The translations under genes and the position numbers were made by a program. The notes below the pieces were generated by a model that saw only the letters and a program-made list of their open reading frames with translations, was not told the origin of the DNA and searched no databases. DNA of 48,606 nucleotides from Ignavibacteria bacterium. Its GTDB lineage: Bacteria; Bacteroidota; Ignavibacteria; UBA10030. Below are positions 3,033 to 32,524 of the stretch, in pieces. The stretch covers positions 1 to 48,606 of the forward strand of contig VGWB01000002.1 of NCBI GenBank assembly GCA_016873755.1. Reading direction: 5' to 3'. Within the stretch, counting starts at the first letter, position 1. The number at the start of each line of letters is the position of its first letter.

Positions 3033-3053
3033 CGTAACACCTGCGTGAGGCTT

Positions 3054-5441: not shown

Positions 5442-5568
5442 CGACGCGTCGTAGAACGGGACGTCGTGGAGGATGCGATGGAAGTGGCGTTTCAGCGACC
5501 AGGAAATATATCACCAGAACAGTGTGTTGAATAGCGGAGATTTCTCAGCTTCTGTCATGATGCCCCAG

Positions 5569-6498
5569 CTACGTCTCGGGGGTGTAGCTCAGATTTGCCG
5601 GTGAAAGCACTTTGTGATGGACAAACGACTTCAGAATCTCACTCACCTTACGGTAGCCGGGCACGACGGGACGATTCGAGAAAACGTCGTACCGGTTGCG
5701 TTCGATCTCGTACAGAATGCCGCGGTACAATCGGGCCGCAGCTATGATAGCGAATTGCCCGTCGCGGTTGAGCATCGGAATTCCGCGAGAGGCTTCTTCA
5801 AAGTATGAATGTGCGCGCTCGACGTTGAACGCCAGCAAGTCCCTCAGATTGTCAGTCAACGCCGACCTGGCGATGTGTCCTTCCGTTACCCCGAAATGCT
5901 CCATCTCGTCCTTCGGCAAGTAGATTTTCCCCCGGAGCCGCCAATCCTCCTCCCCATCTCGGAGAATATTTGCCAGCTGCATCGCAATTCCCATCTGCTC
6001 TGCATGGTTAAACGCACGACTATCCTTGTACCCGAGGACGCGCGTCATCATCAGCCCGACGACCGAAGCCACGCGATAGGTGAAGGTTCTGAGCTCGGCG
6101 AAGGAAGGGTATCGGTCGTACTCCAGATCCATCTGGACGCCGGCAATGAGTTCCGCGGGAAGGTTGACCGGGATCCTGTTCCGCAAGGCAACATCGACAA
6201 ACGCTCCCATCACGGGATGCAAGGACTCACCGGTAGTGTACGCGGTGAAGAGCTCTTCCCTCCAGCTTGCCAGTTCGCGACTCAAGAGGTCTCGTCCACG
6301 CTGCCGCGGCGCATCAACGATATTGTCAGTATATCGGCAAAACGCATAGATCGAATGCACATCCCCTTGCAGCCGCTGCGGGAGCAGCTTCGTGGCGAGG
6401 TAGAAGCTCTTGGAATACGTCCTCGTCATCAGCCGGGCAAGTTGTCTTGCCGGGACGAGATCGAGGTCTTTGTCAGCATTCGGAGTAAGCAAGTACAC
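5569..6498 (-). CDS. crtB: Phytoene synthase (squalene/phytoene synthase family)
   Basis: 309 aa. YAFCRYTDNIVD aspartate-rich region 1 and ANILRDGEEDW region 2. GTG start. Confidence 0.9.
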   Translation of the reverse strand: MYLLTPNADKDLDLVPARQLARLMTRTYSKSFYLATKLLPQRLQGDVHSIYAFCRYTDNIVDAPRQRGRDLLSRELASWREELFTAYTTGESLHPVMGAFVDVALRNRIPVNLPAELIAGVQMDLEYDRYPSFAELRTFTYRVASVVGLMMTRVLGYKDSRAFNHAEQMGIAMQLANILRDGEEDWRLRGKIYLPKDEMEHFGVTEGHIARSALTDNLRDLLAFNVERAHSYFEEASRGIPMLNRDGQFAIIAAARLYRGILYEIERNRYDVFSNRPVVPGYRKVSEILKSFVHHKVLSPANLSYTPET

Positions 6499-6513
6499 GG
6501 AAGTTCCTACGGC

Positions 6514-7167
6514 CTACAATGCTTGGAATTGGGGATCGATTCTTTGAGTGGAACCATTACGGATGCCATTGAAGAAGGAATCGAGTAACACCCGATCAGT
6601 AGTGAACACACCCCTGAAGGCAGACGTCGTTGTCAGCGAGTGCTGTTTTTCAACGCCGCGAATCATCATGCAAAGGTGCGCTGCCTCAATCTGAACGGCG
6701 ATACCTATCGGGGATAGAGTTTCCTCCAGAACGTCAGCGATCTGCTTCGTTATTCGCTCCTGAACTTGAAGGCGGCGCGAGAGAGCATCGACCACCCTCG
6801 GGAGTTTGCTCAGCCCGACGATTCTGCCCGACGGCAAGTAGGCAATGTGAGCCTTTCCGAAAAAGGAGAGCAGATGATGCTCGCAGAGCGAATAGAACTC
6901 GATATTGTGCACCAGAATCATCCCATCATACTCTTCCTCAAATACGGCTGAGCGGATGATCTGCGCCGGGTCTTGATCGTACCCGCTCGTCAAAAACTGC
7001 CACGCCTTGGCTGCACGCTCGGGGGTCTTGACCAATCCCTCACGATTCAAATCCTCTCCTGCTCCAAGAAGCAGATGTTCGTAGTGGCTCTTGAGCCGCT
7101 CGATTGATCGGGGGGGCGAATACGGACGACGGCTTGTTCGCAACGTGCGCGTTTCGTGATCGAACAC
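6514..7167 (-). CDS. folE: GTP cyclohydrolase I
   Basis: 217 aa. LVKTPERAAKAW, the CEHHLLSFFGKAHIAYLP zinc/catalytic motif, and RLQVQERITKQIA. The GTG start is uncertain. Confidence 0.93.
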   Translation of the reverse strand: MFDHETRTLRTSRRPYSPPRSIERLKSHYEHLLLGAGEDLNREGLVKTPERAAKAWQFLTSGYDQDPAQIIRSAVFEEEYDGMILVHNIEFYSLCEHHLLSFFGKAHIAYLPSGRIVGLSKLPRVVDALSRRLQVQERITKQIADVLEETLSPIGIAVQIEAAHLCMMIRGVEKQHSLTTTSAFRGVFTTDRVLLDSFFNGIRNGSTQRIDPQFQAL

Positions 7168-8480: not shown

Positions 8481-9368
8481 TCAGGGCTGGATGCTCGCTT
8501 TGGCCGCCTGCAGGGTGTTCTTGAGGAGCATGGTAATCGTCATCGGCCCTACGCCGCCGGGGACCGGGGTGATGGCCTTTGCCACCACGCTGGCCGATGC
8601 GTAATGGACATCGCCGACGATTCGATAGCCGTTTTTCGCGGACGGGTCGTCGACCCGGTTGGTGCCGACATCAATGACCACCGCGCCCTCTTTCAACATC
8701 GCTCCGGTGATAATCTCCGGTTTGCCTATGGCGGCTATGAGGATATCGGCCATCTTGGTGTAGACGGTGAGGTCCCTCGCTCCCGTGTGCGCGATCGTCA
8801 CGACGGCGTTCGCTCCAGACTGTTTCTGTAACAGGATGTTGACGATCGGTTTGCCGACGATGTTGCTGCGGCCGACGACGACCACGTGCTTTCCTGAAGG
8901 ATCGTTGCCACTCCGGATCAGAAGTTCTTGAATGCCGGCCGGTGTGCACGGCCGCATAGTATCCACCCCGATTACCAGCTTCCCGACGTTTGTAGGATGA
9001 AAGCCGTCGACATCCTTCCGCGGATCGACGCTCTCGATCACTCTGGCCTCGTTGATCTGCTTCGGCAATGGAAGCTGTACCAACACACCATGGACGCGGG
9101 GATCACGGTTGAACTCATCCACCTTCCGCAGCAGCTCCGCTTCCAGCGTTTCGGCCGGCATCCGCTCTGTCACCGAGTAGAACCCTATTTCCTCGCACGC
9201 TTTTCCCTTCATCCTGACGTACACCTGGGAGGCAGGATTGTCACCAACGAGAACAAACGCGAGCCCAGGCGCTATCCCATATGTCGCTTTGAGTCGTTCG
9301 GTCTCTTCCTTTACTTCCCGCCTGATCTCTTCGGCGATCTTCTTACCATCAATGATCTCTGCGGACAT
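8481..9368 (-). CDS. folD: Bifunctional 5,10-methylene-THF dehydrogenase / 5,10-methenyl-THF cyclohydrolase
   Basis: The start is taken at MSAEIIDGKKIAEEIR. Contains LAFVLVGDNPASQVYVRMK, VVVVGRSNIVGKP and PVPGGVGPMTITMLL. Confidence 0.93.
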   Translation of the reverse strand: MSAEIIDGKKIAEEIRREVKEETERLKATYGIAPGLAFVLVGDNPASQVYVRMKGKACEEIGFYSVTERMPAETLEAELLRKVDEFNRDPRVHGVLVQLPLPKQINEARVIESVDPRKDVDGFHPTNVGKLVIGVDTMRPCTPAGIQELLIRSGNDPSGKHVVVVGRSNIVGKPIVNILLQKQSGANAVVTIAHTGARDLTVYTKMADILIAAIGKPEIITGAMLKEGAVVIDVGTNRVDDPSAKNGYRIVGDVHYASASVVAKAITPVPGGVGPMTITMLLKNTLQAAKASIQP

Positions 9369-9473
9369 AGTTGTGTGCGTTGGTGAAATTGAGAAATCGT
9401 GGATCGGATGCGAGAATTGAACCTCCGGGCGGATCTGGCCCGGCATCTAGCATATCGCTACAGCGGTCGACAA

Positions 9474-10319
9474 CTATGAAAAGGCCGGGAATATCACCTG
9501 CTCGATTTTCGTAGCTTTGCCTGTCTCCAAATCCACTTGAAAATAGACTGCGCAGAAACGGACGTCGTGCTGGGCAAGCTCGAATTTGTACGGGACCTGG
9601 TGTTGGAAGCGCTTGATGGCAATTTCCTTCCTCATGCCGATTACGGAATCATAGGGCCCGGTCATTCCAACGTCGGTAATGTAAGCAGTACCCCTGGGCA
9701 AGATCCTTGCGTCTGAGGTCGGGATATGAGTGTGTGTACCGATAACAGCGCTGACGCGTCCCTCCAGATGCCAGGCCAACGCCATTTTTTCTGCAGTTGC
9801 TTCGGCATGCATGTCGACAACGATCACCTTCGTCTCGTTTGAAATTTTGCTGATCGCCCAATCGCCTGATTTGAACGGATCGTCGATCGGCTGCATGTAG
9901 GTGCGCCCCTGGAGGTTGATGACCCCGACGCGTCCCTTCTCTTTGATGTCATAGACCACGTACCCATACCCCGGATTCTCCTTCGGATAGTTCAGCGGGC
10001 GGAGGATGTTGCGTTCAGTGGCCAGGAGAGATTTCACCTGCCACCGATCCCAGATGTGATTTCCTGTCGTGATCACGTGAATTCCCATCTCAAAAAGCTC
10101 CTTGGCCTCCTGCTCCATGATGCTTTTTCCCTCGTTCACGTTTTCGCCGTTGGCAATACAGAAGTCGACCTCGTACTTCTTGACATACTGATTCAGGAGC
10201 TTTGAAGTGAGCGTGATTCCGGGGCGACCATTAATGTCGCCAATGAAGAATATGTTGAGCCGCTTCGACAACAGGTGTTCCTTCCAGACCGCATTATTCC
10301 TGGTGCAAGCTTCAATCAA
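9474..10319 (-). CDS. YmdB-family (TIGR00282) metallophosphoesterase
   Basis: LNIFFIGDINGRPG and ANGENVNEGKSI, plus GNHIWD and His-rich metal ligands. The TTG start is uncertain; an internal TTG at 10271 would give (M)SKRLNIFFIGD. Confidence 0.85.
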   Translation of the reverse strand: MIEACTRNNAVWKEHLLSKRLNIFFIGDINGRPGITLTSKLLNQYVKKYEVDFCIANGENVNEGKSIMEQEAKELFEMGIHVITTGNHIWDRWQVKSLLATERNILRPLNYPKENPGYGYVVYDIKEKGRVGVINLQGRTYMQPIDDPFKSGDWAISKISNETKVIVVDMHAEATAEKMALAWHLEGRVSAVIGTHTHIPTSDARILPRGTAYITDVGMTGPYDSVIGMRKEIAIKRFQHQVPYKFELAQHDVRFCAVYFQVDLETGKATKIEQVIFPAFS

Positions 10320-10390
10320 ATCACACTCAGGAAAACCGCCACAGCAATATAGAGCAAAAACGAGTCAAAGAAAAGTCGAAAAACGGAGAG

Positions 10391-10423
10391 AAACAAAAAC
10401 GGACGCCCGTTCGAGACGGACGC
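10391..10423 (-). terminator. Rho-independent terminator after the anti-sigma gene
   Basis: The minus strand reads GCGTCCGT-ctcga-ACGGGCGT (8 bp including G.U pairs), then ccgTTTTTGTTT. On the plus strand it appears as the direct repeat ACGGACGCCCGT x2. Confidence 0.5.
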
Positions 10424-10451
10424 CCGTCGTGAGAGCAGAGTTCTCCGGCAC

Positions 10452-11003
10452 TTACTTTCGCGCGCGGATCCTCGGCTGAATCAGCCACCGGTCTACTGCT
10501 CCAAGTGCGACGAGTGACAAAAGGGTCAGGAGAATCAACTTGATTGAACCGATTGCTCGCGGCTTGGGCGATAAGCTCTCCAGCTTTGTGGCTTGCACCT
10601 TCAGGAATTCCTGGACTTTCGCGTACAGATCGTCGCAAACTTTCACCATCTCTGTGATCATCGAGGGCTGCGTCGATGCACTCGAGTTCGACGACAGGAG
10701 TGCATACCCGAGAACTGCCAAGACAATCCCCATTGCGATGACGCCACCGGCATTGTTCATGATCGTTTGGATCCATCGACGCTGTCCCTTTGGAAGAATC
10801 CGCTGCATCACGCGGTCCGTGAACTTCCTTGTCGGAGCGTGAGGCGGCTGACGGCGCGCCGCCCCGACGAGGGTTCGGTGGAACTCGACCTCGGACCGGC
10901 ACCGACTGCATACTTCGAGATGTGCGATCACATGGGTTCTCTGCCCATCAAGGATCGTCCCATCAACGAACTCGAGTATCTCTCTGGTGGTCAGATGGTT
11001 CAT
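10452..11003 (-). CDS. Anti-sigma factor (zf-HC2 type), single-pass membrane protein
   Basis: 183 aa. N-terminal HLEVCSRCRSEVEF (H-x3-C-x2-C), a central TM helix, and location directly downstream of the ECF sigma gene. Confidence 0.65.
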   Translation of the reverse strand: MNHLTTREILEFVDGTILDGQRTHVIAHLEVCSRCRSEVEFHRTLVGAARRQPPHAPTRKFTDRVMQRILPKGQRRWIQTIMNNAGGVIAMGIVLAVLGYALLSSNSSASTQPSMITEMVKVCDDLYAKVQEFLKVQATKLESLSPKPRAIGSIKLILLTLLSLVALGAVDRWLIQPRIRARK

Positions 11004-11039
11004 AAAGAGTGACTCCTTGGCTAGACCTCCTTCGTGAAA

Positions 11040-11618
11040 TCAAATGGCCGCGGATTGCCTCACTCCCAGACGCCGACCCACGGCAAGCCGGAGCATCGTA
11101 CGGGCTCGAAACAGCCGAACCTTCACTGTGCCGAGGGGAAGTCCCGTGACTTCGACGATCACTTCGTAGCCCATTTCCTGGATACAGAACAGCGTCAGGA
11201 TCGTCGCATACAGCGGCGGGAGTTTCTCAATCTCGTCGAAAACGATGCTCTGAAACTCGCGCGACTCATATTCGACGTCGGGTGGAGCATCTGCACTTGG
11301 GGCATCAAGACTCCGTTCGTCATCTTCTCCCAACGCAAGGTGAGGCAAGTCCCCCTTCTTACCAAGCGCTGTCATACATACATTGCATACGATTCGGTAC
11401 AGCCACGTCGAGAAACTCGCTTTCCACTCGAAACGGGGCAGCGCTTGAAATGCCCGCACGAACGCATCCTGAATGGCCTCTTCGGCATCCTCCCGATTCC
11501 TGAGCATGCGCATCGCCAGCGTCATCGCCCTATCTTTATGACGGTCGATGAGCTCAGCGAGCGCCCGCTTCTCACCGGCGAGAATCTGCCGGATCATTTC
11601 CTGATCAGGCTTTGACAT
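11040..11618 (-). CDS. ECF-type RNA polymerase sigma-70 family factor
   Basis: The start is taken at MSKPDQEMIRQILAGEKRALAELIDRH. Region 2 (DAEEAIQDAFVRAF...FSTWLYRIVCN) and region 4 (GLPLGTVKVRLFRAR) are present. The 292-aa ORF-track form carries an implausible N-terminal extension. Confidence 0.88.
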   Translation of the reverse strand: MSKPDQEMIRQILAGEKRALAELIDRHKDRAMTLAMRMLRNREDAEEAIQDAFVRAFQALPRFEWKASFSTWLYRIVCNVCMTALGKKGDLPHLALGEDDERSLDAPSADAPPDVEYESREFQSIVFDEIEKLPPLYATILTLFCIQEMGYEVIVEVTGLPLGTVKVRLFRARTMLRLAVGRRLGVRQSAAI

Positions 11619-11646
11619 CACGTTCCCGTGCAAGACCTTGCACTTT

Positions 11647-11677
11647 CTTAGACCGCCGACGAGGACACAAGGTTTCA
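11647..11677 (-). promoter_or_regulatory. Putative ECF-type autoregulated promoter of the sigma/anti-sigma operon
   Basis: The minus strand reads TGAAACCTT, with 17 nt between TGAAAC and GGTC, then GGTCTAAG. The -10 lies about 30 nt upstream of the ATG at 11618. It resembles the -35 GGAAC / -10 GTCTAA classes of ECF promoters. Confidence 0.45.
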
Positions 11678-11696
11678 TGCCAGACTCTCGCGGCGG

Positions 11697-11727
11697 TGAA
11701 ACCTTTGCAGCAGAATCTGGGTCAAAG
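11697..11727 (+). promoter_or_regulatory. Putative ECF-type promoter of the divergent membrane-protein gene
   Basis: The plus strand reads TGAAACCTT, the same 17-nt spacing, then GGTCAAAG. It is near-identical to the motif on the opposite strand 20 nt away. Confidence 0.45.
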
Positions 11728-11784
11728 ATACCAAAGGCCTTGACCAACGTCAATTCACCACCTCGAAGAAAGGAGCTCAACAAG

Positions 11785-12132
11785 ATGGAAGGCGTCCTCA
11801 TTGTATTGATTATCTTCGGCTCGACGGGTCTTGTCGTGTGGAGATGGCTCGAGATCCGCCAGAAGGTGCTCATCACAATGCTCGAGAAGGGCGTTAGCCC
11901 CTCCGAGTTCAAAAACATCGCTACGAAGCATCTCTTTAAGCCAAGCCCGCTCTCAAGCCTGAAATGGGGATTGCTGGCAATGTTTGTGGGGATCGGCTTG
12001 ATCGTGGCAAACTGGCTGGATCAGAGCTACATTGTTCACGATTCGATCTATGTCTCAAGCATGCTTCTGTTTGGCGGCCTCGCCCTCATCATTTTCTACT
12101 TCATTGCGGCCAAGAAGATGAAGCAAGAATAG
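11785..12132 (+). CDS. Small three-TM membrane protein of unknown function
   Basis: The start is taken at MEGVLIVLIIFGS, preceded by AAGGAG. The 164-aa ORF-track form overlaps the sigma promoter region. Confidence 0.7.
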   Translation: MEGVLIVLIIFGSTGLVVWRWLEIRQKVLITMLEKGVSPSEFKNIATKHLFKPSPLSSLKWGLLAMFVGIGLIVANWLDQSYIVHDSIYVSSMLLFGGLALIIFYFIAAKKMKQE

Positions 12133-12153
12133 GAGTATCGTCTCTCTTCTGAG

Positions 12154-12190
12154 AAAGAGGTCGGGCAGTTGTCCGACCTCTTTTCGTTTA
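12154..12190 (+). terminator. Rho-independent terminator
   Basis: AGAGGTCGG(g)-loop-CCGACCTCT, a 9-10-bp stem (12156-12181), followed by TTTTCGTTT. Confidence 0.7.
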
Positions 12191-12311
12191 CCGGGACTAT
12201 CATAACAGCACTCCGGATGATGGGGCCGAATATTCGGCAGAGATTATTGTATCATGCTGGAGAGCCGGCACGAATGAACTCGATATTCACACAATTTCAA
12301 GGACTAACCCC

Positions 12312-14054
12312 ATGGAATGGTCGCTTCGGTCTGCGCTCCTCTGCACAGTGTTCCTACCGGCATTACTCTTCTCACAGAAGTCCCTCACCGGCAAATGGGA
12401 AGGGGCAATCCAAATCGCCGGTCAGGAACTGACAATACTCGTCGATTTCCAGAACGATTCCACGGCGACAATCGATATCCCCCAGCAAAGCGCGAAGGGT
12501 TTGAAACTTACCAACGTGCGCTTCCAGGATCCCGTCGTGCACTTCGAGTTACCGGCGGGACCGGGCCTCGCGGTGTTCGACGGCAGAATCAAGGAAGATG
12601 TCGTCACCGGCGAATTCACCCAGGCCGGGATGAAGGGAACATTCGAACTGAAGCGCGGCGAGGCGATCAGAGTACAGTCTTTCGACGAGGCTCCAATCCA
12701 GTTCCGACCCATTCTCGGTACATGGAATGGCGCCATCAACATCATGGGTCAATCGCTGGCAATCCTGGTGCATTTCAAGAGCGTCGCGAATGAACTGAAA
12801 GCGACGATCGACATTCCTCCACAGAACGCCTACGGATTGAACTTGAAGGACGTCAGGTATGAATCCCCGAAGATCCGCTTCGAGCTTCCGGCGGGACCGG
12901 GGCTCGCCGTCTTCGATGGCGAATTGAAGGACGAATCCATAGTCGGCAGTTTCACGCAGGCAGGAATGACCGGTACGTTTTCGTTGACGCGCGGACAACC
13001 ATTGGAGGAAGAGAAGGCAGTCGAGGAACCTCCCCCCTACAAGGAAGAAGAGGTTACGTTCTCCAACGACACGCTGAAATTCGCCGGGACTCTGACGATC
13101 CCATCGAAGCCGGGTCACCACCCTGCCGTCGTCATGATCACAGGAAGCGGACCACAGAATAGGGATGAAGAGCTCTTCGGGTTCAAGCCATTCAAAATTA
13201 TCGCCGATCACTTCACGAGGAATGGCATTGCCGTCCTGCGGTACGACGACCGGGGTGTCGGTGGCTCCGGCGGCAGCACGATGCAGTCCACAACGAGCGA
13301 TTTCGCAGACGATGTCATCGCGGCCGTGAAATACCTCCAGTCACGAACCGATATCAACCCGAAACAAATCGGGCTGTGCGGGCACAGCGAAGGAGGCCTG
13401 GTCGCTCCGCTGGCGAGTAATCGCTATGAGGACATTGCTTATATCATCCTGATGTCGGGTCCGGGAGTGGATGGCTCTCAGATCCTGTTGGCCCAGTCTG
13501 AGCTCATCCTCCGTGCCGACAGCACGAGTGAACCCGCTATCGCGGAAGCGCTTGAGCTCAACAAGAAGATCTATGCAGCAATCAGGGAGGGGAAGGACAT
13601 CGGCGTATATCGTGAGGAGATTCGCGCAGCGCTACGGAAGGAACTTGACCAGATGAATCCGGAACAGCGTAAGTCCATAACAGATGCAGATCAGTACCTG
13701 AAGATGCGACTGGAGGCGCAGATGAGGCAGGTGGAGAGCCCGTGGTTCAGATTCTTCGTCAACTACAATCCTGCGCCGGCGCTCACGCAGGTGAAATGCC
13801 CTATCCTTGCTCTCTTCGGAGAGCTGGACCTTCAGGTTCCTGCTGAACTCAACAAAGAAGCCATGGAGCGAGCGCTGAAAAACGGGAGTACCAAAGACTA
13901 CACTTTCAAGGTGTTCCCCAAGACGAATCATCTTTTCCTTTCAGCAACGACCGGGAGTCCACGCGAGTATGTATCGTTGAAGAAGGATTTCGTGCAGGGA
14001 TTCCTCGAGACGATGAGCGACTGGATTGCGAAACGTGTTACAATTGTTCGGTAA
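12312..14054 (+). CDS. Secreted alpha/beta-hydrolase (S9/dienelactone-hydrolase-like) with a duplicated N-terminal domain
   Basis: 580 aa with a signal peptide. Two ~95-aa repeats, then a hydrolase core with the GHSEGG nucleophile elbow. Confidence 0.85.
   Translation: MEWSLRSALLCTVFLPALLFSQKSLTGKWEGAIQIAGQELTILVDFQNDSTATIDIPQQSAKGLKLTNVRFQDPVVHFELPAGPGLAVFDGRIKEDVVTGEFTQAGMKGTFELKRGEAIRVQSFDEAPIQFRPILGTWNGAINIMGQSLAILVHFKSVANELKATIDIPPQNAYGLNLKDVRYESPKIRFELPAGPGLAVFDGELKDESIVGSFTQAGMTGTFSLTRGQPLEEEKAVEEPPPYKEEEVTFSNDTLKFAGTLTIPSKPGHHPAVVMITGSGPQNRDEELFGFKPFKIIADHFTRNGIAVLRYDDRGVGGSGGSTMQSTTSDFADDVIAAVKYLQSRTDINPKQIGLCGHSEGGLVAPLASNRYEDIAYIILMSGPGVDGSQILLAQSELILRADSTSEPAIAEALELNKKIYAAIREGKDIGVYREEIRAALRKELDQMNPEQRKSITDADQYLKMRLEAQMRQVESPWFRFFVNYNPAPALTQVKCPILALFGELDLQVPAELNKEAMERALKNGSTKDYTFKVFPKTNHLFLSATTGSPREYVSLKKDFVQGFLETMSDWIAKRVTIVR
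12384..12998 (+). repeat. Intragenic tandem duplication (two ~280-nt units, 12384-12662 and 12711-12998)
   Basis: Protein units share GxWxGAIxIxGQxLxILVxF...TIDIPxQxAxGLxLxxVR...FELPAGPGLAVFDGxxKxxxxxGxFTQAGMxGTFxLxRG. The similarity is also visible at DNA level (ttcgag.t.ccggcgggaccgg.gctcgc). Confidence 0.8.
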
Positions 14055-23923: not shown

Positions 23924-25282
23924 GTGAGAGCGTTGATCTTGTTGAGTGTCCTGTGTCTCTCGCTCACCCTTTGCCTGGCGCAGGAGAAGTCTGAATCAAT
24001 ACTTCCCGACACTCCTGAAGGGAAACTCGTCGTCACCTACCTGAAGGCATACAATTCCGGCGATGATCGGGCCGTGATGGAATTCTTTCGCAACAATGTC
24101 GCACCGGAGGCGTTGAGTCGGGCAAGCGCAGAGGAGCGTATGACGCGATATCGCCAATTGTACAACCGGCTTGGAGCGCTTGAGCTTCAAAGAGTGTTTG
24201 CGTCGCCAGACGGCTCGCTCCGGATCCTTGTGCGATCCGAGAAAGCAGGGTCCTTTGTCTTCGAGTTTGAGGTGGAGAGGACCCAACCGCACCGCATGGT
24301 TCGGCTGATGGTGGACCAGGCGGAGGATCAAAGCCTCTCCCTCTCGAGGAAGCGAAATCGCGCTGAACTCGTGCAAGCAGTCGAAGCTTTCATCGATTCA
24401 CTTGTTGCGGCGGACGAGTTCTCCGGCGTGGTTCTGATTGCGAAAAACGGGAGCGCGTTCTTCCACAAGGCGTACGGCTTCGCAGACAGGGAGCGTAAGA
24501 TCCTCAATCGTCCCGACACGAAGTTCAACCTCGGCTCGATCAACAAGAGCTTCACAAAAGTCGCGATCCATCAGCTTGCCGCGAAAGGAAGGCTCTCACT
24601 CGATGACCCGATCAAGAAGCATCTTCCGGACTATCCGAACCAAGATGCAGCAGAAAAGGTAAGGGTGAAACACCTGCTTGATATGACGTCCGGCATTGGT
24701 GACTTTTTCGGGGATCGCTACTTCGCGACACCAAAGGAAAAGATTAGAAGCATCAGAGATTATCTTCCTCTCTTCGCTGACAAGCCTCTCGAGTTTGCGC
24801 CCGGCACGGGACAGCGTTACTCGAACGGAGGGTACATCGTACTTGGTGCGATCGTCGAAGCAGTTACAGGAATTGACTACTACACGTTCGTGCGCGAGAA
24901 CATTTTCAAGCCCGCAGGCATGAACACGACCGAATCGTACGAGAAAGACAAGCCCGCCCCGAACCGCGCCCTCGGATATACAAGGCGTGGGGGCACATCC
25001 TGGCAAACTAACTACGAGACGCTTCCGGCGAAAGGCAGCTCGGCCGGAGGTGGCTATTCAATTGCGGAAGATATGTTGAGGTACACAATAGCACTGAAAG
25101 CAGGCGTCCTGTACCATCCTGACGCTGGAGGAGGGTTGGGTGTCGCCGGCGGCGCCCCCGGGATCAACGCGTTTCTTGATTGGGATCCTAGTGCAGATGA
25201 GGCGATTGTCGTGCTGGCAAACCTTGATCCTCCGGCCGCGGAAAGAGTTGCCCGCCGAATCCGCTTGTGGCTCCCTCGATAA
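23924..25282 (+). CDS. Serine hydrolase of the beta-lactamase/PBP (class C-like) family, secreted
   Basis: 452 aa, GTG start, signal peptide. SxxK motif in LGSINKSFTK and YSNGGY (YxN). Confidence 0.88.
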   Translation: MRALILLSVLCLSLTLCLAQEKSESILPDTPEGKLVVTYLKAYNSGDDRAVMEFFRNNVAPEALSRASAEERMTRYRQLYNRLGALELQRVFASPDGSLRILVRSEKAGSFVFEFEVERTQPHRMVRLMVDQAEDQSLSLSRKRNRAELVQAVEAFIDSLVAADEFSGVVLIAKNGSAFFHKAYGFADRERKILNRPDTKFNLGSINKSFTKVAIHQLAAKGRLSLDDPIKKHLPDYPNQDAAEKVRVKHLLDMTSGIGDFFGDRYFATPKEKIRSIRDYLPLFADKPLEFAPGTGQRYSNGGYIVLGAIVEAVTGIDYYTFVRENIFKPAGMNTTESYEKDKPAPNRALGYTRRGGTSWQTNYETLPAKGSSAGGGYSIAEDMLRYTIALKAGVLYHPDAGGGLGVAGGAPGINAFLDWDPSADEAIVVLANLDPPAAERVARRIRLWLPR

Positions 25283-25354: not shown

Positions 25355-25427
25355 ACGTTGGGAGGGAGTTCTACTCCCGACCTCCACCGGTCACGTTGGG
25401 AGGGAGCTATGCTCCCGACCTCCACCG
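25355..25427. repeat. Tandem repeat, 2 x 35 nt (38-nt period), each unit a G-rich/C-rich hairpin
   Basis: ACGTTGGGAGGGAG-nnnnn-CTCCCGACCTCCACCG occurs at 25355-25389 and 25393-25427. The units differ only at 3 loop positions. Confidence 0.75.
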
Positions 25428-26393
25428 CTAGACATGCCAAATGAAGTCGCGGTGGCGAAGGAAATACCTGATCTGCTCCACGCTCATCGCGGCCTTGCGC
25501 TGGACCGCCTCGCGGGAGTTGAAGGCGTTGTGGGGGGTGAGCAGAACGTTGGGGTGAGCAAGCAGATCGGTGATGATGCGTGTGGCGGGGGTTGATGTTG
25601 TTACCTCACTTCGCAGGCCCGTTGCGAGGTTCCCTTCATCCTCAAAGACATCCAGCCCGACTCCGTCGAGACGGCCCTCTCGTAACAGCCGTGTGAGGCC
25701 CTCCATCGACGCATGCTCGCCGCGGGCGATGTTCACGAAGATGCAACCCTTCTTTGCGGTCTTCAGCAATTCGTAGCTGAAGTACCCCCGGTTCTCGTCC
25801 GTCAGATTCATTGCACAGACGATGACATCCGCCCACGCGATTCCTTCCTGCTTCGAAACATAGGCGACGTCGGACTTGTTCGGCACGATATCGACGCCCT
25901 TCACCTCGAAACCCAACCCGCGGGCGATCCTCACAGTTTCTCCCCCAATCCTCCCGACACCGACAACCAGCAGATTCTTTCCGAGGCATTCCGAGCCCGT
26001 CAGTCCGTCCCGGTTAAAAGTCGGAAACTGCCTGATCTGCCGGGGAAGCTTCCTCAACAAGGAAATCGCAAGCAGAATCGCGTGTTCGGCTACAGCCCGC
26101 GTCGAATACTCTTCCAGGTATCCCAGCGGCAACACACTCTGGGTTTGCTTCCGATAGGCAATTAGGTGGTCATATCCTGTGCTGCGGCTGAGGATGCCGT
26201 CGAGCTTATCAGCCCATTCAATAGGGATCTTTGACTGCGTTCTGATGCTGATCAGTGGGGCTGGGGGCTGATTGTGTCCCATTTCCTGGATGGTCTTGCC
26301 CGTCAGGTCGTACGCCAATTCATCGCGCAGGATCGACCGCAAAGTTTCTGCTTCTTCTTCGAAGGCTTCGTAAAAGTAGATATTCATCATCAC
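25428..26393 (-). CDS. D-isomer-specific 2-hydroxyacid dehydrogenase (NAD-binding)
   Basis: 321 aa. LLVVGVGRIGGETVRIARGLGFEV (GxGxxG), a catalytic Arg in NIARG, and LTPHNAF (His). Confidence 0.9.
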   Translation of the reverse strand: MMMNIYFYEAFEEEAETLRSILRDELAYDLTGKTIQEMGHNQPPAPLISIRTQSKIPIEWADKLDGILSRSTGYDHLIAYRKQTQSVLPLGYLEEYSTRAVAEHAILLAISLLRKLPRQIRQFPTFNRDGLTGSECLGKNLLVVGVGRIGGETVRIARGLGFEVKGVDIVPNKSDVAYVSKQEGIAWADVIVCAMNLTDENRGYFSYELLKTAKKGCIFVNIARGEHASMEGLTRLLREGRLDGVGLDVFEDEGNLATGLRSEVTTSTPATRIITDLLAHPNVLLTPHNAFNSREAVQRKAAMSVEQIRYFLRHRDFIWHV

Positions 26394-26472: not shown

Positions 26473-28266
26473 CTACACCGCCAGTATTCTTCTTGGCCTC
26501 CCACGGGACCGCTTGCCCGGTATTGACGATGCACCGGCTATTTTCGATTTCAACCTGAAGTAGAAGCTTAGCATCTTTTCTAGATAGCCATCTGCTGCGT
26601 TGCTTCGGTCATTGTAAGCGACCGTCTCTTTCCCTATCATAAGTGTGATATATTCCAGAAAGGCTTCATCTGAACCGCTCTTTTCCTGCTTGTAGTCAGG
26701 ATTGGTCTTGTTCACCTGCACAGTTCCCCCTATGAATCGACTATGTTTATGCGCTCCCTCCTCGAATGCCGTTTCCGAATAGTTGAATCGCTGTCCCTCC
26801 CTGCCCTCCACGGCTGGAGTCTTCTGGATACGAGTAGGCCCAGCATCTCCCACCATGATGTATGCCTTGGACTCAGCTTTGACCCTATCGGCCTTCGCGA
26901 GCACTTCAGCGGGGGTGCTCCGCTTTTCCACACCCTTGAAATATACTCGAGATGATACTACGCCATCTCTTGCATCAGCTTCCATAAGGGTCAGTTCCGA
27001 GTTCTCCAGCCTAATAGTCGGACTGCTGGCTGAGATTCTTACTAGGGTACCATCAGGCACTCTTTTCGGTACCTCTGCTTTCAGCAACAAATGTGCTCTC
27101 TCTCCAACACTTGCTCGAACTGATTGTGGAACGAAATCGAAGCCGTTTGGTGGTCTGCGAGGCTCTGGCGGCTTTCTCCCCAGACCTTGAAGCATTTCCA
27201 AGTCTTTGAATTCATCCATGTTCAGGATATCTGAGGCCATCTCGATCGCTTTCCTTTGAATTTCCGTTAGCTTCCTTTCCATCTCAGCTTGTTTGAGTGC
27301 TTCAACTTCTTCCTCTATGAACGGTCTGATGTTGTAGAGTTCATCGAGAAGGGCCATCCAGTCCTCATTCTCCTCGAAGCCCGTCCGCGCCGGTAAGGGT
27401 TTCAGGAAATTTGCCTCTATATGTCCTTTCACGTTCCCGCTTGCATAGATGCTTTCTTCTAATCCGTATGCCTTCAACTGACTTACATCTTCAACTACAG
27501 CCACCCCTGTGTGCCGAAGGGCGAGCTTCCCTTTACCCGACGGGTCAAAATACAATTCAAGGCGAAATTTCTTTTGAAAGTCTCGCGCGAGACGCATATC
27601 CTTAAACTTCAATCCGATTGGGGGAAGTTCTATCCTCAGAGGTTGAACTGTGGAGGAACTCCCGCGGCAGATGACTGTGATAACAAGCGTGCCAAGTCTC
27701 AAATAATGATCGAACTTCTCGGCAAAGACCTTTTGAAGGTTCTCTGCTGAAAGCGAGCCCCGCCGTTTCGTTGGGTCGAAAAGGAGCTGAGTGATGATTA
27801 CTTTGAGGCCAGCGTGAGGTAACTCATCTCGCTTTGGCACCGATTCGAATTCTGCGGTGCTGGAACCCGACCGTAGCGTCACCTTCAGGGTTTGGGAATC
27901 CGAAGCCTTCTTCGATAGAAAAATGCATTTCTTCCCGATTTGAAGGAAGCTAAAATTCCCAATCCCGAGCTGCCCGATTTGATCGACATCCAAACTCGGT
28001 TTTACTGAGTCGGCTACCTTCTTCAGAGCATTTTCGAACTCATATCGATCCATGCCATAGGGATACTCGATAGTTATCTTATCCTTCTCTAGGGTGTAGA
28101 GAACATTGCAGACAGGAATTCCCTTCCCCGCCTTTTGCGCTTTGAGGTGCTCATCCAAAGCGTTGCTGACATGTTCCTTGATCGCATCAGCTGGATTTCT
28201 GTAAAGGCTACCAAGGAGCTGAAGCGCATTTGCTATATTAAGCTGTATTGCAACTCGGCGCGTCAT
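26473..28266 (-). CDS. Divergent GHKL-superfamily ATPase (MORC/Hsp90/MutL-like) with C-terminal AT-hook
   Basis: 597 aa. N-box EHVSNALDE and glycine loop DQIGQLGIGNFSF, but a degenerate G1 position (IEYPYGMD). Charged helical linker. C-terminal KRSRGRPRR. Low-GC gene whose start overlaps the upstream gene (ATGA). Confidence 0.68.
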   Translation of the reverse strand: MTRRVAIQLNIANALQLLGSLYRNPADAIKEHVSNALDEHLKAQKAGKGIPVCNVLYTLEKDKITIEYPYGMDRYEFENALKKVADSVKPSLDVDQIGQLGIGNFSFLQIGKKCIFLSKKASDSQTLKVTLRSGSSTAEFESVPKRDELPHAGLKVIITQLLFDPTKRRGSLSAENLQKVFAEKFDHYLRLGTLVITVICRGSSSTVQPLRIELPPIGLKFKDMRLARDFQKKFRLELYFDPSGKGKLALRHTGVAVVEDVSQLKAYGLEESIYASGNVKGHIEANFLKPLPARTGFEENEDWMALLDELYNIRPFIEEEVEALKQAEMERKLTEIQRKAIEMASDILNMDEFKDLEMLQGLGRKPPEPRRPPNGFDFVPQSVRASVGERAHLLLKAEVPKRVPDGTLVRISASSPTIRLENSELTLMEADARDGVVSSRVYFKGVEKRSTPAEVLAKADRVKAESKAYIMVGDAGPTRIQKTPAVEGREGQRFNYSETAFEEGAHKHSRFIGGTVQVNKTNPDYKQEKSGSDEAFLEYITLMIGKETVAYNDRSNAADGYLEKMLSFYFRLKSKIAGASSIPGKRSRGRPRRILAV

Positions 28267-28928
28267 GATTGTTCTCCCTTCTTCTTGAAATAGTTAAACC
28301 TATTTGTGGTCAGCGTCAACCATCGTCTGAACGAATCTTCTTCGCCTAGCATGACCAGAAGACTGGAGAGATACCCGACATCAAAAGCATCGAGCATCTT
28401 CCTGAAAATCTCCCGGGCCTCTCTCGGTCCGTCTCTGAAAAGCCTTAACTCCTCCTCCAATATCAAGAGCAACGTTTTGATTCGGAGAACCTTTTCCTCA
28501 ATTTTCTTTGCCTCTAGTTGTTTCTCTGGAAAAGGAATCGAAAGAATCTCTGCGACTCTTTCAACAACAAGACGAGGAGGGGTTGACCTTCCCTCAAGGC
28601 AATCCCGCATTGACCTAGTATCCCAGCCAACTTCGCTTGTGAAAGCATCCACGTTTCCATAGCGATGCTGCGTGGTCCACCATTCTCTCACTTCTTGCCA
28701 CACTTTTCTCGGCGCGTTTTCCTGGCTCTCCCAGGAGCTTAGGATTCTGTTGAGCTTTTGCAGGTTTTCGGGCGATGGAATCCTCCTTCTCGTACTCGAA
28801 AGCCACTTCTCTACGGTCTTCAGAGGGGTCCCAATTCGGCGAGCTATCTCTCTCTTCGATAGGCCTCTTTCTTTGGCAAATGCTTCTAACCTTGCGATGG
28901 TGGTCTGTGAGTCGTTAGGTTGATTCAT
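28263..28928 (-). CDS. Double helix-turn-helix (Xre-like) protein, partner of the GHKL ATPase
   Basis: 221 aa. LSKREIARRIGTPLKTVEKWL and a second HTH-like segment, SMRDCLEGRSTPPRLVVERVAEIL. Helical C-terminus. Confidence 0.6.
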   Translation of the reverse strand: MNQPNDSQTTIARLEAFAKERGLSKREIARRIGTPLKTVEKWLSSTRRRIPSPENLQKLNRILSSWESQENAPRKVWQEVREWWTTQHRYGNVDAFTSEVGWDTRSMRDCLEGRSTPPRLVVERVAEILSIPFPEKQLEAKKIEEKVLRIKTLLLILEEELRLFRDGPREAREIFRKMLDAFDVGYLSSLLVMLGEEDSFRRWLTLTTNRFNYFKKKGEQS

Positions 28929-28960: not shown

Positions 28961-28988
28961 CCTCGGCCGTTAGCTACTAGCCTCGGCC
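28961..28988 (-). promoter_or_regulatory. Direct repeats upstream of the HTH gene (possible operator)
   Basis: The minus strand reads GGCCGAGG-ctagtagctaac-GGCCGAGG (20-nt period), 33-60 nt upstream of the ATG at 28928. Confidence 0.25.
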
Positions 28989-29390
28989 TTATTTTATCCA
29001 GCATATCTTTAATTCATTTTCAATTTGCCTGAATTCCTTGTCTCCAGTTGCAAGCTGACACTTCTTCTTGAGTGCCAACGCAGCGGCGAAACAGTCCCCG
29101 TAGGACATCTTGTTAGAGGCTTTCAAACGAGCCGCCTGCAACGTCAACTCCTTGTTAGCCTCCACAATCTGCATCGGGAGTGCTCTCATCGCATCCTCAG
29201 CCAGCGTCGCGGTCTTCTCGCCTCCAGCCCTGAGTGCATGGTAGATGACCTCTCCCCAATTCACTACGCATATAAATACTTCACGATCCTTCGTAATACA
29301 TTCCTCGAAGATCTTCGCCACTTCGTCATATCCTTCGTCGCGCTCTAAATAAGCGATGAGTGCGTAACTATCCAGAACCGTTGCCTTCAT
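28989..29390 (-). CDS. vapC: PIN-domain ribonuclease toxin (type II TA)
   Basis: 133 aa. N-terminal VLDSYALIAYL (acidic Asp) and C-terminal SYGDCFAAALA, which is PIN-typical. ATGA overlap with the antitoxin gene. Confidence 0.88.
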   Translation of the reverse strand: MKATVLDSYALIAYLERDEGYDEVAKIFEECITKDREVFICVVNWGEVIYHALRAGGEKTATLAEDAMRALPMQIVEANKELTLQAARLKASNKMSYGDCFAAALALKKKCQLATGDKEFRQIENELKICWIK

Positions 29391-29617
29391 AGTTCGCGCT
29401 CCCTCTTCTTGTCCTCCATCAGGAACTTCAGCACCTTGCCCTCTGTCCCAAGCACACCAGCCAAGCTTTCGAAGTAGCTCTTATCTAGGGGTTGGATAAA
29501 GAGTTTACCGTTCTGCTCGATGAACGCGATCTTCGTTCCTTTCTTGATGCCGAACTTTCTCCTGATTTTCGCGGGCACCACGATCTGCCCCTTCGTTGTC
29601 ACAACTGATGTCTCCAT
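29387..29617 (-). CDS. vapB: AbrB/SpoVT/MazE-type antitoxin
   Basis: The start is taken at METSVVTTKGQIVVPAKIRRKFGIKKGTKIAF (SpoVT-AbrB swapped-hairpin motif). RBS AAGGAGG lies 6 nt upstream. Confidence 0.85.
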   Translation of the reverse strand: METSVVTTKGQIVVPAKIRRKFGIKKGTKIAFIEQNGKLFIQPLDKSYFESLAGVLGTEGKVLKFLMEDKKREREL

Positions 29618-29635: not shown

Positions 29636-29667
29636 ATTATAATACGAAGAAGTCAGATGCAAGTCAA
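29636..29667 (-). promoter_or_regulatory. Near-consensus sigma70 promoter of vapBC
   Basis: The minus strand reads TTGACT (29667-29662), a 17-nt spacer, then TATTAT(AAT) (29644-29636). The palindrome AAGGTA-N-TACCTT (29675-29687) lies just upstream. Confidence 0.5.
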
Positions 29668-31841: not shown

Positions 31842-32300
31842 TCACTTCCTTCTTCCACCCCTCTTCTTCCTCCCACCCTTTGCCGCTCTCTTCTTTTTCT
31901 TCGCAACCTTCTTCGGCTTCCGTTTTGGCTTCTCCACAGGCACGCTCTGCGGTCCCTTCACAAGTCCGACCAGGCAGCCAGTCGGATCCGTAAAGAGGGC
32001 AAAGGTAACCATATCGGGAACTTCCGTCACCGGCTTGACTACCGTTGCGCCCAGACTGACCGCTTTGTCCAAGTATGCCTGGGGGTCCTCCACCTGTATA
32101 TAGAACGTCGCGAACGGAGATTGATCCCCTTCGACCTGGCCGATGCCACCATTGATCCCCATTTTCAATTTGGTGTCAATCATCCCGTAGTTCATGGACG
32201 GGATGTCTTGGATGTTCCAGTCGAAGAGATTTGTGTAGAAATCCTTCGCACGCTGCAGGTCCTTAACATTGACCTCAAAATGAACCACCGCCGCTCCCAT
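31842..32300 (-). CDS. VOC (glyoxalase/bleomycin-resistance) family protein with a lysine/arginine-rich C-terminal tail
   Basis: The start is taken at MGAAVVHFEVNVKDLQRAKDFY. VOC beta-alpha-beta-beta-beta pattern. Tail KPKRKPKKVAKKKKRAAKGGRKKRGGRRK. Confidence 0.8.
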   Translation of the reverse strand: MGAAVVHFEVNVKDLQRAKDFYTNLFDWNIQDIPSMNYGMIDTKLKMGINGGIGQVEGDQSPFATFYIQVEDPQAYLDKAVSLGATVVKPVTEVPDMVTFALFTDPTGCLVGLVKGPQSVPVEKPKRKPKKVAKKKKRAAKGGRKKRGGRRK

Positions 32301-32524
32301 GTAGACCTCCGAAAATGAGGTGAGCTGATTATGTGGGCTAGATTGGGATGATTCAATACTAATTGATGGTCTTTGTTTTTGCAAGAAGCATCACGCAGAG
32401 ATTTCACGTTCACAGACGTGCCGCACTTAAGAAAAGAGAAATCGACTATTTACCATTTCAGGAAATCGTTGTATTTTCAATCGGTTTCCTTTCATCACTT
32501 CCACCTCCTCTTCCAACGGACCCC

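Follow-up and report, generated by a model that had tools for sequence, protein, structure and literature searches.

The DNA analyzed here, referred to below as the window, is a stretch of 48,606 nucleotides (positions 1 to 48,606 of contig VGWB01000002.1, forward strand) from the GenBank assembly GCA_016873755.1 of an Ignavibacteria bacterium. It carries two adjacent minus-strand genes, one for a 597-aa protein with an ATPase domain of the GHKL type ("the ATPase") and, directly upstream of it, one for a 221-aa protein with a helix-turn-helix (HTH) domain ("the partner"). A first-pass annotation, made from the sequence alone, had singled out this pair as a candidate DNA-surveillance or defense module. 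The features of the locus are collected in Table 1. The plus strand reads TCAT at 28263-28266, i.e. ATGA on the minus strand, which confirms the 4-nt overlap of the two open reading frames (ORFs) described in that annotation, and judging from this arrangement the two genes are most likely translationally coupled. Related loci have spacings between the partner stop codon and the ATPase start codon that range from a 2-nt gap to a 23-nt overlap. The GC content at 26-30 kb is 0.48-0.52 versus about 0.53-0.58 in the rest of the window; the "low-GC island" reported earlier is therefore a real dip, but of modest size.

Table 1. Features of the gene pair and of the adjoining upstream genes in the window
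Feature	Position	Strand	Evidence
Hsp90-like GHKL ATPase, 597 aa, whole gene	26473..28266	-	ORF, Pfam HATPase_c_3, AlphaFold2 model, Foldseek
Bergerat-fold ATP-binding domain, aa 1-160	27787..28266	-	invariant columns and TRAP1/HtpG/GRP94 profile matches
Hsp90 M-like alpha/beta domain, aa 161-300	27367..27786	-	Foldseek N-terminal plus middle domain alignments; invariant basic residues
48-residue helix, aa 301-348	27223..27366	-	DSSP on AlphaFold2 model, pLDDT 84-90
Ig/FN3-like beta-sandwich, aa 376-473	26848..27141	-	all-beta in AlphaFold2 model
Family-specific C-terminal beta plus three-helix domain, aa 495-576	26539..26784	-	invariant columns
Basic tail KRSRGRPRR with RGRP AT-hook core, aa 585-593	26488..26514	-	sequence; disordered in AlphaFold2 model
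Partner protein, 221 aa	28263..28928	-	Pfam HTH_3; AlphaFold2 model; 51 homologs
VapC-type PIN toxin, 133 aa	28989..29390	-	Pfam PIN, E 7e-19
MazE/AbrB-type antitoxin, 76 aa from likely ATG at 29617	29387..29617	-	Pfam MazE_antitoxin
Sigma-70-like promoter TTGACT-17-TATTAT, upstream of mazE	29639..29667	-	10/12 consensus positions; consensus match only

The ATPase and its partner

The Pfam domain HATPase_c_3 (PF13589) was detected in the ATPase at aa 26-136, with 29.2 bits against a gathering score of 25 (E-value 1.1e-6). Homology searches identified at least 386 full-length homologs, nearly all of 585-600 aa and aligned end to end, with 50-64% identity (89% in one case), which databases name only "hypothetical" or "ATP-binding protein". 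In an alignment of 46 sequences, to which the following statements on invariant residues refer, residues E31, N35 and D38 of the N-box EHVSNALDE (aa 31-39) are invariant, and the form KEHxSNAxDE is found in long and short variants of the family alike. This segment displays Motif I of the GHKL ATPases (E-x3-N-x2-D), which comprises the catalytic Glu and the Mg-binding Asn. The G2 lid DQIGQLGIGNFSF (aa 95-107) displays the GxxGxG pattern of Motif III, the ATP lid, and its GQxGxG aligns with the GQFGVGF of Hsp90; here G98-Q-L-G101-I-G103 are invariant or nearly so (G98, L100, G101 and I102 without exception). Aa 89-100 of the lid region have low confidence in the structural model described below. 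At the sequence level, the Glu and Asn of the N-box and the ATP lid are thus intact throughout the aligned family. The DxGxG (G1) box is replaced by IEYPYGMD at aa 66-73, in which Y68, Y70 and G71 are invariant; the first residue of the corresponding [ED]YPYGM signature is E or D in about 87% of the loci and A, H, G, C or S otherwise, and two HMMER alignments differ in pairing the Asp of DxGxG with E67 or with Y68. The first-pass annotation gave the positions of the N-box, the G1 segment, the lid and the C-terminal tail (aa 585-593) correctly and described the G1 box as degenerate. It is indeed non-canonical, but the invariance of this unusual segment marks it as a signature of the family rather than a product of decay.

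A few loci contain disrupted versions of the ATPase gene: it is split over three reading frames in L037, found in two pieces in L040 and represented only by fragments in L043. These are probably pseudogenes or assembly errors; if pseudogenes, they would mean that the module occasionally decays.

The structure of the ATPase was modeled with AlphaFold2 on the 46-sequence alignment (predicted local distance difference test score, pLDDT, 79; predicted template-modeling score, pTM, 0.49), which yielded an N-terminal alpha/beta region up to about aa 290. In a Foldseek search of the PDB all top 50 matches to this model were members of the Hsp90 family (Hsc82, TRAP1, HtpG, GRP94), with E-values of about 1e-12 and probability 1.00, aligned over about 370 columns that correspond to the N-terminal and middle domains, at 12-18% identity. 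A profile of the family compared with PDB sequences likewise ranked TRAP1 (E-value 1e-5), HtpG (5e-5) and GRP94 first, over aa 19-121. Neither MORC nor MutL appeared among the top 50 fold matches or the top 60 profile matches, and a regular expression for the MORC-specific S5 motif, GhXhhpXXRhl (PMC2292703), matched one of the 46 aligned sequences, at a non-conserved site. The ranking of folds, the ranking of profiles and the S5-motif test together identify the ATPase as an Hsp90-like rather than a MORC- or MutL-like GHKL protein, and on their account we rejected an assignment to MORC or MutL. The assignment to the GHKL superfamily in the first-pass annotation is therefore borne out, both by the PF13589 score above the cutoff and by the Foldseek probability of 1.00 to Hsp90 N-terminal domains; among the branches it named (MORC, Hsp90, MutL), only that of Hsp90 is retained.

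In the model, the ATPase combines the N-terminal and the middle domain of an Hsp90-like fold. R169, R251 and R294 are invariant in the middle domain, for which no sequence-level match was found in the PDB or Pfam, and R294 is located in the loop FLKPLPARTGFEEN (LPARTGFEEN), a candidate for the catalytic-arginine loop of this domain. Domain-level alignments (root-mean-square deviation below about 10 Å) in the whole-model Foldseek search stop at about 370 columns, and the region aa 366-597, searched for an Hsp90 C-terminal dimerization domain, has no match among PDB sequences or in Pfam. The NCBIfam models for HtpG/HSP90 do not match the window ATPase, while a short-form relative reaches 29.6 bits versus a cutoff of 455 bits for PRK14083 ("HSP90 family protein"). 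Judged by these comparisons, the ATPase is not a bona fide Hsp90, and the part beyond about residue 370 is unrelated. It also differs from Hsp90 in its low identity, in having [ED]YPYGM instead of DxGxG, in the replacement of the C-terminal dimerization domain by a helix, an Ig-like domain, a novel domain and a basic/AT-hook tail, and in having an obligate HTH partner and mobile, sporadic genomic contexts.

The first-pass annotation noted a charged helical stretch, which in the model corresponds to the 48-residue helix listed in Table 1, a candidate coiled-coil or dimerization arm. The remaining "about 250 aa" in which it could name no motif can now be resolved into this helix, an optional beta-sandwich and a family-specific domain. 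We compared a profile of aa 366-597 with 1.84 billion cluster representatives and obtained 143 matching proteins. The presence of proteins with fibronectin type III (FN3) domains among the co-matches led us to describe the beta-sandwich as immunoglobulin (Ig)/FN3-like. This domain is missing from both classes of short forms (about 480 aa) and also occurs in a sister HATPase_c_3 family (620-760 aa), often in two copies, and in 12 copies in a protein of 2048 aa. The last domain (aa ~476-597) is confined to the ATPase family in the same search and has no match in Pfam or among PDB sequences; its conserved polar residues are E498, H508, S509, R510, N519, K546, E547 and E563. We do not claim an HNH-like reading of this domain (H508 ... 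N519 ... N522/D524), as it relies on the motif pattern alone, with no backing from profiles. The C-terminal tail has the R-G-R-P core and basic flanks of an AT-hook and is predicted to bind DNA. Exact RGRP is present in 31 of the 50 contexts with a long form and a partner (a GRP-like variant in four more), but in only one of 23 partner-less short forms, the tails being basic throughout. The AT-hook proposed in the first-pass annotation is therefore real in the window and common among its relatives, without being a defining feature of the family.

A relative of the ATPase, P0268 (941 aa), has two Ig-like domains followed by sigma-70 region 4 and a DnaA C-terminal HTH, with the N-terminal ~500 residues unannotated; its sigma-70 region 4 resembles that of MzaA from the MZA anti-phage system. 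The HTH domains placed after the beta copies support a DNA-directed role of the wider group. The sister family itself (P0213, P0318 and their relatives) consists of rare HATPase_c_3 proteins of about 746 aa with two Ig-like domains, encoded for instance at L129 (4971-8910) and L132 (4914-7834). A conserved gene located downstream codes for a protein of 217-220 aa with 50% identity between the loci and no Pfam match; in L129, genes for a ResIII/DEAD helicase and a MarR-like protein lie just upstream on the opposite strand. We considered an accessory gene common to the ATPase family and the sister family and rejected it, as the product of this downstream gene is unrelated to the partner (hhalign probability 0.1%).

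The partner contains an XRE-type HTH_3 domain at aa 16-63 (Pfam E-value 7.6e-8). Its AlphaFold2 model (pLDDT 79) is all-helical and comprises the HTH, a three-helix unit at aa 93-128 and a C-terminal bundle at aa 140-217. The earlier description of two HTH-like segments holds for the first; the second is not supported by any profile and corresponds to the three-helix unit, seen in the model only. The 51 matches that make up the partner family are mostly of about 221 aa and show 40-74% identity. Their alignment reveals a variable N-terminal, HTH-containing part and nearly invariant C-terminal 70 residues, the C-terminus having no match in Pfam or among PDB sequences. Foldseek finds structural neighbors for the HTH alone (HipB, SinR, Aca1, antitoxins), while the best E-value for the whole protein, 0.86, is not significant; PADLOC matches are weak and limited to the HTH region (RmrA, E-value 0.002).

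Distribution and genomic neighborhoods

We collected 132 loci by exact-protein look-ups and from species genomes and metagenomes; the 128 that carry the family correspond, together with the window, to 93 independent contexts. They come from about a dozen phyla, including Acidobacteriota, Chloroflexota, Synergistota, the candidate phyla radiation (CPR; Saccharibacteria, Paceibacterota), Gemmatimonadota, Armatimonadota, Firmicutes, Zixibacteria, Coatesbacteria, Aminicenantes and WS2. The family can be divided into three classes: the long form with a partner; proteins of about 480 aa that lack the beta-sandwich and keep the partner (L117, L119-L124); and proteins of about 460-480 aa without a partner, mainly from Acidobacteriota (at least 23 contexts), with N-box and lid intact. 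The second class refutes the idea of a strict coupling between the presence of the partner and that of the beta domain. A hidden Markov model (HMM) of the partner detects it directly upstream of the ATPase in all long-form loci with enough upstream sequence, except L107. The HTH-GHKL pairing, whose conservation the first-pass annotation had proposed to check, is thus strict in the main clade and absent from the Acidobacteriota-type clade. No unit other than the pair is conserved across the 93 contexts, which span many phyla, and the pair moves laterally as a whole between distantly related bacteria. No homolog was found in INPHARED, PLSDB or IMG/VR, so carriage by phages, plasmids or viruses was not detected in these collections.

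L107 (about 380-1680) is the sole long-form locus in which no partner can be detected despite sufficient upstream sequence, even with a relaxed HMM. The space is taken up by two overlapping ORFs on the plus strand, of 161 and 142 aa, and by an antisense ORF of 400 aa, and the partner could have been replaced or have diverged strongly.

In the window, the genes that adjoin the pair upstream on the same strand code for a MazE/AbrB-type antitoxin and a PIN (VapC) toxin, and the gene downstream of the ATPase for a 2-hydroxyacid dehydrogenase (Pfam). We place the start of mazE at 29617, where the ATG is preceded by GGAGG (the mechanically predicted ORF reaches 29662); the antitoxin gene encodes 76 aa in L010 and L048 as well. 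Inspection of the 60-nt gap between the PIN and HTH genes for a promoter-like site revealed none, which together with the promoter ahead of mazE suggests a single mazE-PIN-HTH-ATPase operon; by its sequence, TTGACT-17-TATTAT is the probable promoter of these four genes. Where the pair stands alone, it is preceded by an upstream region of its own, in which a TTGACT element is found. The same 60-nt spacer contains a direct repeat, GGCCGAGG-N12-GGCCGAGG (28961-28968 and 28981-28988). Its interpretation as a conserved operator was rejected, given that the equivalent spacers of L010 and L048 lack it, and it may be due to chance or be a lineage-specific operator.

Clustering of neighbors within 6 kb (566 kb of flanking sequence from the 93 contexts) yielded one recurrent family beyond the pair, namely PIN with MazE, in five contexts that all belong to the clade closest to the window. 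L049 is syntenic with the window, and in L010, L048/L050 and L051 the MazE-PIN-HTH-ATPase block lies on different flanks, which implies that in this clade it moves as a unit of four genes. The adjacent toxin-antitoxin (TA) pair noticed in the first-pass annotation is therefore present, as MazE/AbrB and PIN, and is more than a neighbor.

In a further scan, made with a crude ORF caller, we examined the 150 ORFs closest to the pair in 55 partner-containing contexts, none of them more than 1.8 kb away. The most frequent Pfam families were PIN (8), N6_N4_Mtase (5), ResIII, Mrr_N and UPF0020 (3 each), followed by HSDR_N, EVE, Eco57I, N6_Mtase, PemK, GmrSD_N, MmeI_Mtase and HNH (2 each); among PADLOC models mad2 (9), type II methyltransferases (MTase_II, 5) and PglX (3) were leading. 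The control set, 97 ORFs located 5.5-10 kb away in the same loci, was led by the housekeeping families N_methyl, glutamine synthetase, TPR and ABC transporters. The module thus resides in small islets of TA, restriction-modification (RM) and defense genes within otherwise ordinary chromosome, and the enrichment next to defense genes that the first-pass annotation had proposed to look for is found, in the form of family counts.

Individual loci illustrate this setting. In L047 the pair is placed directly between a CBASS (cyclic-oligonucleotide-based anti-phage signaling system) operon, with CD-NTase and Cap15, and DUF4062/Schlafen-AlbA genes; in L008 it adjoins TIR, AbiJ and integrase genes; in L001 it is convergent with genes for a PLD-SNF2 helicase, an MmeI-type methyltransferase and GmrSD; in L044 it is found near a methyltransferase-Mrr fusion, Prim-Pol and a resolvase fragment; in L046 Shedu is 5 kb away; and in L005 the pair and three other small genes are inserted between leuC and leuD. 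The L047 region (57-7026) is a compact multi-system defense island; the pair lies there on one strand, with the partner shortened to 154 aa, and the flanking DUF4062 and Schlafen (SLFN_AlbA_2-HTH_24) genes encode two HATPase_c_4 proteins. The islet that splits leuC/leuD in L005-L007 (Dehalococcoidia) spans 4.4 kb (about 9339-13705) and contains, besides the pair, an 80-aa zinc-ribbon-like ORF and the genes for a DUF6946 protein and for a protein of 298 aa that matches HNH weakly (E-value 7.5e-4, below the cutoff).

A search for the boundaries of the island in the window revealed neither a tRNA nor an integrase gene, and no direct or inverted repeats on its flanks. Outside the pair, two tandem 35-nt copies that are 91% identical (ACGTTGGGAGGGAG..CTCCCGACCTCCACCG), each with an internal palindrome, occupy the gap at 25355-25427 between the convergent genes 23924..25282 (plus strand) and 25428..26393 (minus strand); they look like a repetitive extragenic palindromic (REP)-like element or a bidirectional terminator. 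A 180-aa ORF at 31842-32384 (minus strand) has an extremely basic C-terminal tail (KPKRKPKKVAKKKKRAAKGGRKKRGGRRK) and thereby represents a second protein with a lysine/arginine-rich C-terminus in the vicinity of the module.

Comparison with known systems

A literature search returned no published description of an architecture that combines an HTH protein with an Hsp90-like ATPase; the DefensePredictor paper contains a generic mention of HATPase in a figure legend only, and no match to it could be established. Several described systems nevertheless share features with the pair. The prokaryotic MORC and paraMORC1-5 GHKL ATPases of RM operons (Iyer, Abhiman & Aravind 2008, PMC2292703) likewise possess a GHKL and a second alpha/beta domain, match HATPase_c_3, spread laterally in a sporadic manner and occur in RM-rich neighborhoods. 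They differ from our family in the S5 motif and in the structural neighbors, which for the latter are Hsp90 proteins. The pair also has no conserved link to SF2 helicases, methylases or nucleases, the RM genes being frequent but not fixed in the 93 contexts. ParaMORC3 and paraMORC4 carry a fused nuclease or TIR domain, whereas none was detected in the ATPase family, whose conserved partner is an XRE-HTH protein. A similar distinction applies to Shedu type I-D/paraMORC3 (VcSduA; PMC12137116): this protein has an N-terminal GHKL ATPase, a clamp-like middle domain and a defense context, but ends in a DUF4263 PD-(D/E)xK nuclease, while the ATPase family has no recognizable nuclease and no PADLOC match.

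CapK/CapS is a GHKL and HTH pair by which neighboring immune operons are regulated and which has also been recruited together with VapC (Chambers et al. 2026, PMC13373217). CapK/CapS and VapKSC resemble the pair as two-gene GHKL and HTH modules located by diverse immune operons, with a variant tied to VapC/PIN. CapK is an HTH-STAS-GHKL protein, a Ser kinase of the SpoIIAB type, and CapS is a STAS-wHTH protein (PMC13373217). Neither protein of the pair has a STAS domain according to Pfam (the partner is all-helical in the model) and the ATPase belongs to a different, Hsp90-like type of GHKL protein, with a middle domain, so that we reject identity with CapK/CapS; unlike in VapKSC, moreover, the VapC of the window keeps its own MazE-type antitoxin.

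The fold search of BFVD returned, for the model of the N-terminal and middle domains, many models of the phage protein RIIA (E-value about 1e-9, 320-350 columns) and giant-virus Hsp90s. RIIA is known as the "protector from prophage-induced early lysis" and acts in phage-host conflict; the models suggest that it shares the plan of a GHKL plus a middle domain. Differences include the absence of sequence similarity, the absence of ATPase homologs from the phage and viral collections, and the fact that RIIA is phage-encoded, about 700-800 aa long and different in its C-terminal half. Finally, the gene pair resembles type II TA systems in that a small XRE-HTH gene lies upstream of a larger gene and overlaps it, with order and overlap conserved.

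Possible roles of the gene pair

Our tentative interpretation, to which we assign a probability of roughly 0.4, is that the pair is a self-contained mobile two-gene module, composed of an Hsp90-type ATPase and an HTH adaptor, that takes part in genetic conflict, either in defense against invaders or in the maintenance of a mobile element. A role in conflict is suggested by the recurrence of the pair alone in the 93 contexts and by the contrast of its defense-rich nearest neighbors with the housekeeping control; that its target is DNA is suggested by the AT-hook or basic tail, the HTH of the partner and the HTH domains of P0268. More specific functions, in defense or as a DNA clamp or sensor, are proposed by analogy. 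In such a scheme the ATPase would dimerize through its N-terminal domains upon binding of ATP, as Hsp90, MutL and MORC do, with the long helix or the C-terminal domain providing a further dimer contact, and the dimer would close on DNA as an ATP-gated clamp. The basic or AT-hook tails would engage DNA, with a preference for AT-rich minor grooves. The invariant C-terminal bundle of the partner could be its docking site for the ATPase, and the variable HTH could direct the complex to specific DNA, act as a repressor of the pair's own operon, or combine both functions. As no nuclease is present, we propose a non-nucleolytic output: blockage or compaction of the target DNA, or ATP-driven remodeling of a bound protein, which in the clade of the window could be the co-transcribed VapBC complex.

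The pair could instead be a stress-sensing regulator of adjacent immune or TA operons, comparable to CapK/CapS, CapH/CapP or BrxR, in which the ATPase would sense a signal such as damaged or foreign DNA and the HTH partner would act as a repressor until released, VapBC being controlled or triggered in this way in the clade of the window. The combination of HTH and GHKL proteins beside many different defense systems fits this possibility, as do the apparent promoter shared with VapBC and the recurrence of the four-gene block, and there is the precedent of a GHKL and HTH pair that controls immune operons and was co-opted with VapC (PMC13373217). We nonetheless consider regulation unlikely, because no operon regularly follows the pair or shares its orientation (in L001 the pair and the RM genes converge), and because the pair has housekeeping flanks in L010 and L046 and no recurrent neighbor outside one clade, and in the VapBC clade itself lies downstream of the TA genes, away from their promoter. 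The lack of STAS domains and the Hsp90-like rather than SpoIIAB-type ATPase point in the same direction, and a highly conserved 600-aa protein with four domains would be large for a sensor-regulator. The gene order and overlap, with the small HTH gene first, are also typical of type II TA-like addiction modules. In this case the partner would be an autoregulating antitoxin whose C-terminal bundle neutralizes the ATPase, and the latter would be toxic when free, for instance by clamping chromosomal DNA. The HTH resembles those of HipB, HigA, GraA and HicB-type antitoxins (in local, non-significant matches), the putative interaction domain is invariant, and the module is mobile, single-copy and scattered among PIN and PemK genes. 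However, a toxin that needs an antitoxin is hard to reconcile with the Acidobacteriota-type clade, in which at least 23 contexts contain an ATPase with intact N-box and lid and no partner; the ATPase has no known toxin domain, and a partner of 221 aa and three domains is large for an antitoxin. We therefore regard an addiction module of this kind as rather improbable.

One could also argue that the ATPase is a housekeeping or accessory chaperone of the Hsp90 family, or a MutL-like repair ATPase, which is found in variable regions by coincidence. The proteins that it matches best, by structure and by profile, are true chaperones, and the NCBIfam model "HSP90 family protein" is matched weakly by the short forms; in addition, sequence conservation is high and some loci are ringed by housekeeping genes. 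Evidence against such a function comes from a sporadic distribution lacking conserved synteny in 93 contexts, including a copy inside a leu operon, from the low-GC signature of the module and its TA and RM nearest neighbors, from the failure of both the window protein and the short form to reach the NCBIfam HSP90/HtpG cutoffs, and from a C-terminal half unrelated to Hsp90; moreover, neither a DNA-binding tail nor an obligate HTH partner is a feature of chaperones. We consider it very improbable.

The interpretation as a mobile conflict module has its own weaknesses. The neighbor enrichment consists of family counts from a crude ORF caller rather than per-locus statistics, and several loci, such as L010 and L046, are flanked by housekeeping genes. 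Dimerization, DNA clamping and docking of the partner rest on analogy; the likeness of the middle domain to that of Hsp90 is structural only, and with a pTM of 0.49 the arrangement of the ATPase domains is uncertain. Binding of ATP is a prediction, and the non-canonical G1 segment, non-acidic at its first position in about 13% of the loci, counts against it. About a third of the long forms and nearly all partner-less short forms lack the AT-hook, and the existence of a partner-less clade as such is also unfavorable. The ATPase, its short forms and the sister family are all unmatched in the defense catalog we used (PADLOC-DB v2.0.0), NCBIfam has no model for the window ATPase, and neither Pfam nor PDB sequence searches revealed a recognizable nuclease or other effector domain, in agreement with the first-pass annotation, which had named neither a known system nor an effector. 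Finally, the identity between phyla is 50-60%, and fast-evolving immune genes usually show lower values.

GHKL ATPases are already known as components of conflict systems (MORC/paraMORC, GHKL-Shedu, CapK, SLFN-pAgo), and within this theme the pair is a credible candidate for an immunity or addiction module. To our knowledge, all conflict GHKL proteins described so far are either MutL/MORC-like or kinase-like and have a nuclease, helicase or TIR domain or a phospho-substrate. The family reported here differs from them in that it belongs to the Hsp90 branch, is effector-less as far as can be recognized, and contains two domains without Pfam models, and its obligate XRE-HTH partner brings a novel, putative interaction domain. 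It is present in about a dozen phyla, including CPR, and has yet been missed by current annotation and by defense catalogs. The module comprises only 2.5 kb (3.2 kb with vapBC), so its function is directly testable by cloning. If it defends or stabilizes DNA, the mechanism would be non-nucleolytic, i.e. clamping, silencing or client remodeling. In one speculative version, which we hold to be quite improbable, immunity or silencing would be achieved on an effector-less Hsp90 scaffold: a dimeric, ATP-gated clamp steered by AT-hook tails and the HTH adaptor would recognize AT-rich invading DNA and entrap it topologically or compact it, or client remodeling in the manner of Hsp90 would free a toxin such as VapC on infection. 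If true, such a silencing clamp would be a bacterial functional analog of eukaryotic MORC silencing that originated independently, from the chaperone branch of the GHKL ATPases.

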